From: a virus
Lineage: Duplodnaviria > Heunggongvirae > Uroviricota > Caudoviricetes
IMG/VR virus record: IMGVR_UViG_2531839665_000020
Coordinates: 1 to 26,759 of that record
Direction: 5' to 3' (one strand)
DNA length: 26,759 nt
Part shown: positions 17,657 to 18,322 of the stretch, one piece after another
Position numbering within the stretch: position 1 is the stretch's first letter
Layout of the letters: each line of letters begins with the position of its first letter
Position numbers and translations under genes: made by a program
The notes under the pieces: model-generated
The model's database searches: none
What the model saw: only the letters and a program-made list of their open reading frames with translations
What the model was told of the DNA's origin: nothing

Positions 17657-18322
17657 TCAGACAAACCCAGCCGCTTTCCGGCGTTCATATTCCTGTTTCA
17701 GCAACTCAATTGGCGTTGGTCCCGCAGGACGTTTGGGTGCTGCCAGTTGTCGCCGGACAGGCGGAACACTCAGGCCGTTGCTAACATGCTTTGCCCATTT
17801 CGTCAGCTGCCGTTCTGCAAGCCGTTTTAACTCCCCTTCGGTCATCTGGCGTTCAATCCCCTTTGAACGCATCTCGAGGCAAATGTGATACAGCACAGGC
17901 TGAGACCACGGGTACTTATCACTTCCGTCGTATCGCCAGGACTCATTGCGCCAGCGGCGGTACTCCTCCATCACAGCATCCACCGTCAGACCAAATGGAT
18001 TGGCCCCGCTTTCCGAAATCAGCGCCACAAACTCAGCCAGGTCCGGAGGCCATGTTTCACCCGCCCGGCAGCAGTCCATGCACTGGCGGCAGACCTGCCG
18101 GATTTGCTGCTCAGTCATCGCGCCAATCTGTGCAATCCAGAGCTTCGAAGGTGCGGCCCCGTTCTTCTGGGTCCAGCGGTTCGAATACACCTCCCCCATG
18201 AGCTCCCACAGCTTCCAGGCCGTTTCCGTCGCTGATAAATCCGTTTTCACGTTCCCACTGCTCACGTGCTGCCCGAATTTCCTGAACTGCCCGTGATGCG
18301 GTTCCACCTGGTGCTGCTGCAT
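17657..18322 (-). CDS. Replication protein P-like (helicase loader)
   Basis: 221 aa; C-terminal half (YPWSQPVLYHICLEMRSKG...ELKRLAERQLTKWAKHV) follows the lambda P pattern; ATG at 18322 has AGGGGG SD but lies 212 nt inside the upstream gene, so the start is uncertain (alternative Met at 18199). Confidence 0.75.
   Translation of the reverse strand: MQQHQVEPHHGQFRKFGQHVSSGNVKTDLSATETAWKLWELMGEVYSNRWTQKNGAAPSKLWIAQIGAMTEQQIRQVCRQCMDCCRAGETWPPDLAEFVALISESGANPFGLTVDAVMEEYRRWRNESWRYDGSDKYPWSQPVLYHICLEMRSKGIERQMTEGELKRLAERQLTKWAKHVSNGLSVPPVRRQLAAPKRPAGPTPIELLKQEYERRKAAGFV

Follow-up and report, generated by a model that had tools for sequence, protein, structure and literature searches.

A conserved out-of-frame overlap between a DnaT-like replication initiator gene and a putative lambda P-type helicase-loader gene in a Rac/PPompW-type prophage

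In a 26,759-nucleotide stretch of tailed-phage DNA (IMG/VR record IMGVR_UViG_2531839665_000020, called here the window), the gene of an O-like replication initiator and the gene that follows it, coding for a P-like protein that sequence and predicted structure identify as a putative helicase loader of the lambda P family, have 212 nt of minus-strand DNA in common (18322-18111) and read them in different frames. Judging from sequence comparisons and predicted structures, we give a probability of roughly 80% to the reading that this is a genuine and ancient same-strand overlap, in which the loader is translated from the ATG at 18322, the initiator continues to the TGA at 18111, and constraint is split between two successive segments of the shared DNA. 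An out-of-frame overlap of about 70 codons had been proposed at this place, with three options offered for it: true overprinting, a loader start at an internal methionine (18199), or a frame-altering mutation in one of the two genes. The overlap and its exact coordinates were confirmed, and overprinting is the option supported by the Shine-Dalgarno (SD) sequence, the ATG and the two open frames found in all 29 non-redundant related loci. The idea that both genes share this DNA holds in the sense that both frames are open, but the constraint on them is unequal, and the constrained frame changes along the overlap.

The initiator gene (18111-19151, minus strand) likely starts with the ATG at 19151 and ends with the TGA at 18113-18111, coding for 346 amino acids according to the list of open reading frames. 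The full-length loader gene (17657-18322, minus strand) extends from the ATG at 18322-18320 to a stop codon at 17659-17657 and codes for 221 amino acids; its N-terminal sequence is MQQHQVEPHHGQFRK.... The P frame is the +1 frame of the initiator, the initiator being read in the -1 frame relative to P. The SD sequence AAGGGGG (18329-18335, minus strand), 6 nt 5' of the ATG, is contained in Lys-Gly-Val codons of the initiator; the ATG itself (18320-18322, minus strand) straddles the initiator codons caT-Gca (His-Ala), and a TAA in the P frame (18326-18328, minus strand), one codon ahead of the ATG, bounds the P-like reading frame, which in many relatives begins 3 nt before the conserved ATG. The original prediction that this ATG has the best SD is borne out by the calculated anti-SD pairing energies, which amount to -11.8 kcal/mol for Met1, vs -6.1 for Met42 (18197-18199), -1.5 for Met69 (18116-18118, in ATGACTGA) and -3.2 for Met82 (18079), all on the minus strand. 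No sign of an RNA structure sequestering the SD was seen, the 121-nt fold around the start being not unusual (z = -1.2). For the analysis of constraint two parts of the overlap are distinguished: S1 (18240-18296, minus strand), which in the O frame codes for the initiator helix SRAVQEIRAAREQWERENG and in the other frame for loader residues 10-28, and S2 (18111-18239, minus strand), where loader residues 29-70, with which the helices of the folded domain begin, are encoded together with the 42-residue C-terminal tail and stop codon of the initiator in the other frame.

The window is 99.9% identical to a Rac/PPompW-type prophage of E. coli O103:H2 12009, and the local gene order, all on the minus strand, is cro-like, ydaT-like, O-like initiator, P-like loader and a DUF1627 gene. 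Short overlaps are also found further upstream, where the ydaT-like reading frame overlaps the initiator start by 29 nt (19123-19151, minus strand) and the cro-like reading frame overlaps the ydaT-like start by 17 nt (19658-19674, minus strand). On the other side of the replication module, just 3' of the DUF1627 gene, RefSeq annotates a fimbrial protein pseudogene with a frameshift and an internal stop (about 16270-16680, minus strand). A gene for a 252-residue secreted protein (15260-16018, minus strand) is also located near the module, at the site of the Paa/AdfO adherence factor in PPompW records, and represents virulence-associated cargo.

Relatives of the arrangement were collected by scanning one genome per species, which yielded 37 loci. 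Retaining only those below 93% nucleotide identity that also have an upstream initiator gave a non-redundant set of 29 from about 17 genera of Enterobacterales (among them Escherichia, Citrobacter, Enterobacter, Klebsiella, Phytobacter, Pluralibacter, Kluyvera, Salmonella, Pectobacterium, Erwinia, Buttiauxella, Rahnella, Dryocola, Serratia, Samsonia, Rouxiella and Yersinia); loci without the motif or with a truncated reading frame (L035, L038, L042) and two orphan loaders without an initiator (L031, L040) were left out. The orphans, both from Erwinia, lie beside a ttcA-like gene (L031, 2492-3118, strain CGal63) and beside a PTS transporter gene (L040, 2474-3043, strain MMLR14_017); both neighbours are chromosomal genes, the orphans could be what is left of prophages or genes since domesticated, and they retain an ATG 16-32 codons 5' of the equivalent of Met42.

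All 29 loci, diverged as they are, keep both frames open and retain the start and stop signals, with an SD-preceded ATG of the P frame 149-227 nt 5' of the initiator stop. Neither of the two findings named beforehand as speaking against the overlap was obtained: the loader homologues start before residue 42, and the initiators of the relatives do not stop sooner. The initiator stop always falls within conserved P coding sequence, 25-97 nt 5' of the loader motif WPPDLAEF, and the +1 offset is the same in all the related loci that were examined. The initiator residues over the P start codon are H, N, Y or D followed by A, V, E or G, always encoded as NAT-Gnn and never with NAC (29 loci). Over the 978 codons that separate the upstream ATG from conserved P sequence in these loci, the P frame has 0 stops, vs 40.8 expected from the density of +1-frame stops outside the overlap in the same set of initiator genes. 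When the initiator codons were resampled synonymously, the P frame remained open in 61% of the trials per locus and the P ATG was kept at a mean of 0.43 per locus; both were observed in 29 of 29 loci, and since the loci are phylogenetically related, products of these per-locus probabilities overstate the significance. The SD of the relatives is GGAGG-like, usually formed by an initiator Gly-Gly written as GGA GGT, and its mean anti-SD energy over the 29 loci is -9.2 kcal/mol, compared with -6.4 after synonymous recoding and -2.7 at other ATGs in the initiator genes; energies of -6 kcal/mol or lower are reached by 93% of the conserved P starts vs 12% of the background ATGs. At least six loci have no canonical start other than the upstream ATG ahead of the invariant AW..W codons.

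The frame under constraint was located by comparing the three codon positions, expressed as mean pairwise identity in a fixed set of 20 sequences. In initiator-only DNA, 5' of the overlap, the identities at O1/O2/O3 are 0.72/0.71/0.45, and S1 has a pattern like that DNA (0.58/0.68/0.38). From 18239 onward the least conserved position is O1, which is the third position of the P codons, with values of 0.45-0.66 vs 0.63-0.91 at the other two; the block GGVFEPLDPEERG of S2 gives O1/O2/O3 identities of 0.56/0.79/0.81, and loader-only DNA 3' of the overlap gives P1/P2/P3 identities of 0.71/0.76/0.40. Near loader residue 29 the periodicity therefore changes over from that of the initiator to that of the loader, and it does so both between genera and among 72 closely related E. 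coli haplotypes, the set used for polymorphism, the scan of viral contigs having returned near-identical E. coli prophages only. In these haplotypes the segregating sites at O1/O2/O3 number 1/1/8 in S1 (Fisher p=0.0013), 16/4/8 in S2 and 95/38/19 in loader-only DNA. The codon-position comparison across related prophages, which had been named as a check on the overlap, thus returns O-frame periodicity in S1 and P-frame periodicity in S2.

Every O3 change in S1 hits the second position of a P codon, which indicates that loader residues 10-28 are unconstrained, and no amino-acid constraint was found over residues 2-28 as a whole; the start at 18322 is accordingly supported only by the conserved SD, ATG and open frame. 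In S2 the initiator residues follow the loader: EER, EEW, EKR and QER alternate as predicted from synonymous changes of the loader codons K53-N54-G55, and L, M and V alternate where an NTG adjoins a Trp codon, again as synonymous P changes predict. Synonymous recoding of P in S2 left the O frame open in 24% of the trials per locus when scored to the observed stop and in 38% when scored over a fixed 22 codons, the frame being open in 29 of 29 loci. Third positions of the P codons are also less polymorphic in S2 than in P-only DNA among the 72 haplotypes (16/41 vs 95/153, Fisher p=0.012); in the comparison between genera the overlap gave no significant excess of constraint at synonymous P sites (p=0.33 and 0.11), suggesting that selection on the sequence of the tail, as opposed to its open frame, is weak. 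The sequences indicate a tail whose open frame, and perhaps also its acidic character, is maintained and whose exact sequence is mostly dictated by the loader.

Assignment of the P-like protein to the lambda P family is based on a match to Pfam Phage_lambda_P (PF06992) of 60.9 bits (cutoff 26) over residues 56-188, and on a match to phrog_109, the P-like helicase loaders (E=1.8e-62), in which residues 19-220 align with positions 22-235 of a 236-position profile; no NCBIfam model matched the loader. The AlphaFold model of the 221-residue form, built from 56 aligned sequences, has a mean pLDDT of 77.8, with residues 1-26 below 50, a helix at 29-46 with values around 89 and a helical fold continuing to the C-terminus. 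The predicted model presents the flexible N-terminus, the two helical domains and the C-terminal helix of a lambda P-like fold, and its best Foldseek matches are lambda P chains Y, Z and V of 9oa1, the DnaB-lambda P complex (probability 1.00, 192-217 columns), with a global RMSD of 9-10 A that suggests a different orientation of the domains. Lambda P itself is composed of a flexible domain I (residues 1-29/40), which forms a lasso contacting DnaB, a domain II that is compact and starts near residue 30, and domains III and IV (PMC12661323). As loader residue n aligns approximately with lambda P residue n+8, the leader without constraint matches domain I, and constraint sets in where domain II starts. 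In a 260-residue P homologue from a non-overlapping pair (L124), residue 27 aligns with loader residue 22, which indicates that the 221-residue form is colinear with complete loaders. The constrained stretch from about residue 29 includes AWxLWExMGEIYSNRWxxKNG, and its near-invariant residues comprise the motif A36-W37-x-L-W40 together with R49, W50, K53, N54, G55, P58 and W62.

Other starts have been assigned to this gene in the databases. In the four E. coli loci inspected, RefSeq/PGAP begins the loader at Met69, 204 nt 3' of the ATG at 18322, giving a 153-residue protein; the DDBJ PPompW records begin at Met82, giving 140 residues; PGAP calls proteins of 180-181 residues from Met42 in other genera, and versions of 221-223 residues are also present in nr. 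The best of the alternatives is a start at Met42, the one put forward in the original prediction, which would leave a protein of 180 residues and an overlap of 89 nt and make the upstream frame, ATG and SD incidental. The residue is at least 90% conserved, it is the start that PGAP has chosen in Citrobacter, Klebsiella, Salmonella, Brenneria and Pectobacterium, and in E. coli a GGGAG lies 3 nt upstream of it (-6.1 kcal/mol). Against this, P-frame periodicity and the invariant Trp codons of AWxLW are already found upstream of it, from about residue 29-40, Met42 lies within the predicted helix 29-46, and it is replaced by Leu in two loci (L024 and L026) that have only the upstream ATG. The SD-like sequence is moreover not conserved, reading tggcaggtc or tggacagtc in other genera, the orphan loader of L040 begins 16 codons upstream of the Met42 equivalent, and such a start leaves unexplained both the 0 stops where 41 are expected and the conserved upstream SD and ATG. 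We regard a start at Met42 as unlikely.

Even less probable is the gene model adopted by RefSeq, in which the loader would begin at Met69 (18118) through coupled termination and reinitiation and the true overlap would be 8 nt. PGAP annotates this start in the E. coli genomes inspected, an ATG 5 nt ahead of the stop is a classic layout for coupling, and the ATG is there in most loci; but residue 69 is Leu in many genera, no SD precedes it (-1.5 kcal/mol), and the near-invariant residues R49 to W62 lie within residues 42-68, before it. A start there would remove three predicted helices of the domain-II equivalent, and the Pfam and PHROG alignments reach upstream of residue 69. The position of Met42 inside a conserved helix and the Leu found at residue 69 in many genera imply that neither is the start of the family. 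The 153-residue and 140-residue proteins are probably truncated, and shorter isoforms from Met42 or from Met69 (ATGACTGA, by termination-reinitiation) are possible as additional products.

A further possibility is that the loader is made as an O-P fusion through ribosomal frameshifting, of the programmed +1 (or -2) type, close to the point, about nt 18239, where constraint passes from the initiator frame to that of the loader; databases do contain fused O-P reading frames (P0107, P0183 and the chimeric phrog_15931). It was observed, however, that the switch region is variable in sequence and length, with in-frame indels, and carries no conserved slippery or shift-prone motif; a frameshift would moreover not require the open P frame, or the SD and ATG about 85 nt upstream, both of which are conserved. 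Fused reading frames are rare and look like the product of indels in assemblies, P0107 in addition running past the P stop, so that programmed frameshifting comes slightly behind even the Met69 start in our estimate. The in-frame fusions of the P0107/P0183 type are most likely assembly indels, though natural fusions are conceivable; phrog_15931 (482 positions) matches the initiator at 163-347 and the loader at 271-482. Finally, the suggestion that one gene of the strain carries a frame-altering mutation, the overlap being a pseudogene artefact, has nothing but the unusual length of the overlap in its favour and is hardly credible, because the overlap (149-227 nt in 29 of 29 relatives) and the same +1 offset recur in every related locus examined, which rules out a strain-specific frameshift, the same DNA is present in 1256 of 5426 complete E. 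coli genomes, and both proteins are full length when compared with their families.

The initiator differs from lambda O in its domains. Pfam DnaT (PF17948) is matched at residues 201-267 with 62.8 bits (cutoff 25), placing a DnaT-like domain there, and RefSeq names the protein DnaT-like ssDNA-binding domain-containing protein; with 94.5 bits it falls short of the cutoff of 201 set for the NCBIfam DnaT equivalog, indicating that the initiator is not DnaT itself. HTH_36 at the N-terminus remains below the cutoff (20.9 bits), and the Phage_rep_O family (PF04492) of lambda O gave no match in the initiator of the window. The layout comprises an HTH N-terminus, an iteron-bearing linker, the DnaT-like domain, and a C-terminal helix followed by a Gly/Asp/Glu-rich tail. 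In the low-complexity linker, CCCAAAAACGG is present in three exact copies and one degenerate copy, in the same orientation and 33-66 nt apart (18694-18867, minus strand); by analogy with the lambda ori, which lies inside the O gene, these repeats are probably the iterons of an origin. An AlphaFold model of the C-terminal 159 residues of the initiator predicts the DnaT domain with confidence, a disordered linker at 83-98, a helix at 98-115 and a disordered tail at 119-159 (numbering of the fragment). The disordered linker holds the SD and ATG of the loader, and the helix corresponds to SRAVQEIRAAREQWERENG of S1, so that in the predicted models the structured parts of one protein overlie disordered parts of the other.

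The helix and tail encoded by S1 and S2 are not confined to DnaT-type initiators. At least five architectures bear them, namely HTH_36 with DnaT, DUF1376 with T5orf172 and DnaT, DUF1376 alone, Phage_rep_O (relative L021, which joins this domain to the same overlapped tail), and HTH_36/DnaD_N without DnaT, in addition to tail-bearing initiators without any Pfam domain; homology among the initiators of different architecture starts at the SD of the loader. DnaT-type initiators that accompany a different P subfamily, of 258-260 residues, diverge right after ...FARHVNH and are without the tail, which indicates that the tail travels with the loader subfamily studied here. These pairs, from a second subgroup of the lambda P family (2501-4079 in L123 and 2501-4071 in L124-L126), serve as a natural control for the long overlap. 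They have the same DnaT-like domain up to ...QWEQKFARHVNH, a PF06992 loader and the same prophage context, but their initiator, devoid of helix and tail, stops only 4-29 nt inside the gene of the loader; the long overlap is thus a property of the P subfamily found in the window.

The genuine overlap favoured above could operate as follows. Ribosomes would initiate the loader at the ATG at 18322, with the SD embedded in the disordered linker of the initiator, and the initiator, whose frame is -1 with respect to P, would be translated across a further 212 nt up to the TGA at 18111. Over the first ~85 nt, selection would act on the initiator helix SRAVQEIRAAREQWERENG, the first ~28 residues of the loader being tolerated as an open and disordered leader; over the last ~130 nt it would act on the domain II-like helices of the loader, the disordered tail of the initiator following with its frame kept open. 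The start may lie ahead of the helix because an SD and an ATG can be accommodated in a flexible linker but not in a helix that is itself constrained. The overlap would couple the expression of the two proteins and link them genetically. [quoted passage not shown] A tentative extension, to our minds more doubtful than probable, is that the adaptor is encoded within the 5' end of the loader gene, in the other frame, so that any initiator recombining in frame just 5' of the SD would automatically gain a matched tail. Such an adaptor, if real, would be a built-in compatibility device, and it would explain both the occurrence of the same ~70-codon tail on at least five unrelated initiator architectures and the location of the mosaic-module junction exactly at the ribosome-binding site of the loader.

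The module resembles the O-P pair of lambda in several respects: the initiator precedes the loader in a cro-proximal early operon in both, the loader belongs to the lambda P family (PF06992, and Foldseek matches to 9oa1), iteron-like repeats lie within the initiator gene, and the C-terminal part of lambda O is the part used with P. It differs in the length of the overlap, O and P of lambda having only 4 nt in common (ATGA) and the present pair 212 nt read out of frame, and in the initiator, which has an HTH and a DnaT-like domain in place of Phage_rep_O. The N-terminal leader of the loader is without sequence constraint here, whereas domain I of lambda P is the DnaB-contacting lasso (PMC12661323).

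Overprinted phage genes such as A/B/K and D/E of phiX174, L of MS2 and Rz/Rz1 of lambda are alike in encoding two proteins on one stretch of DNA, on the same strand and in different frames, and, as in overprinted genes of phages, the overlapped part is largely disordered in one product where the other is structured. The overlap described here differs from these in being terminal, a C-terminus over the next N-terminus with no embedded gene, in involving two old and recognisable families and no de novo protein, and in a constraint that alternates between the frames. The ydaU-ydaV region of the Rac prophage of E. coli K-12 has the same organization of immunity and replication genes (dicA/racR-like, cro-like, ydaT, initiator, loader and the DUF1627 gene ydaW), and the P-type gene of the window is also found in Rac-SA53, where it is annotated as 'ydaV'; YdaV of K-12 is, we assume, a DnaC/IstB-type ATPase and not a lambda P-type loader. 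Out-of-frame overlaps in phages and O-P modules are already known; in the literature searched, no description of a conserved initiator-loader overlap was found.

Taken together, these data indicate that current annotation probably places the start of the loader gene wrongly, the calls of 153, 140 and 180-181 residues each losing part of the predicted folded N-terminal domain. The overlap would provide a natural example of two old protein families that have about 200 nt in common, structured segments of the one alternating with those of the other between the frames, which bears on how overlapping genes originate and persist. The helix SRAVQEIRAAREQWERENG and the tail that follows it are a candidate loader-recruiting element, by which the recognition between initiator and loader may become testable in a large group of lambdoid prophages other than lambda, including those associated with Stx phages.
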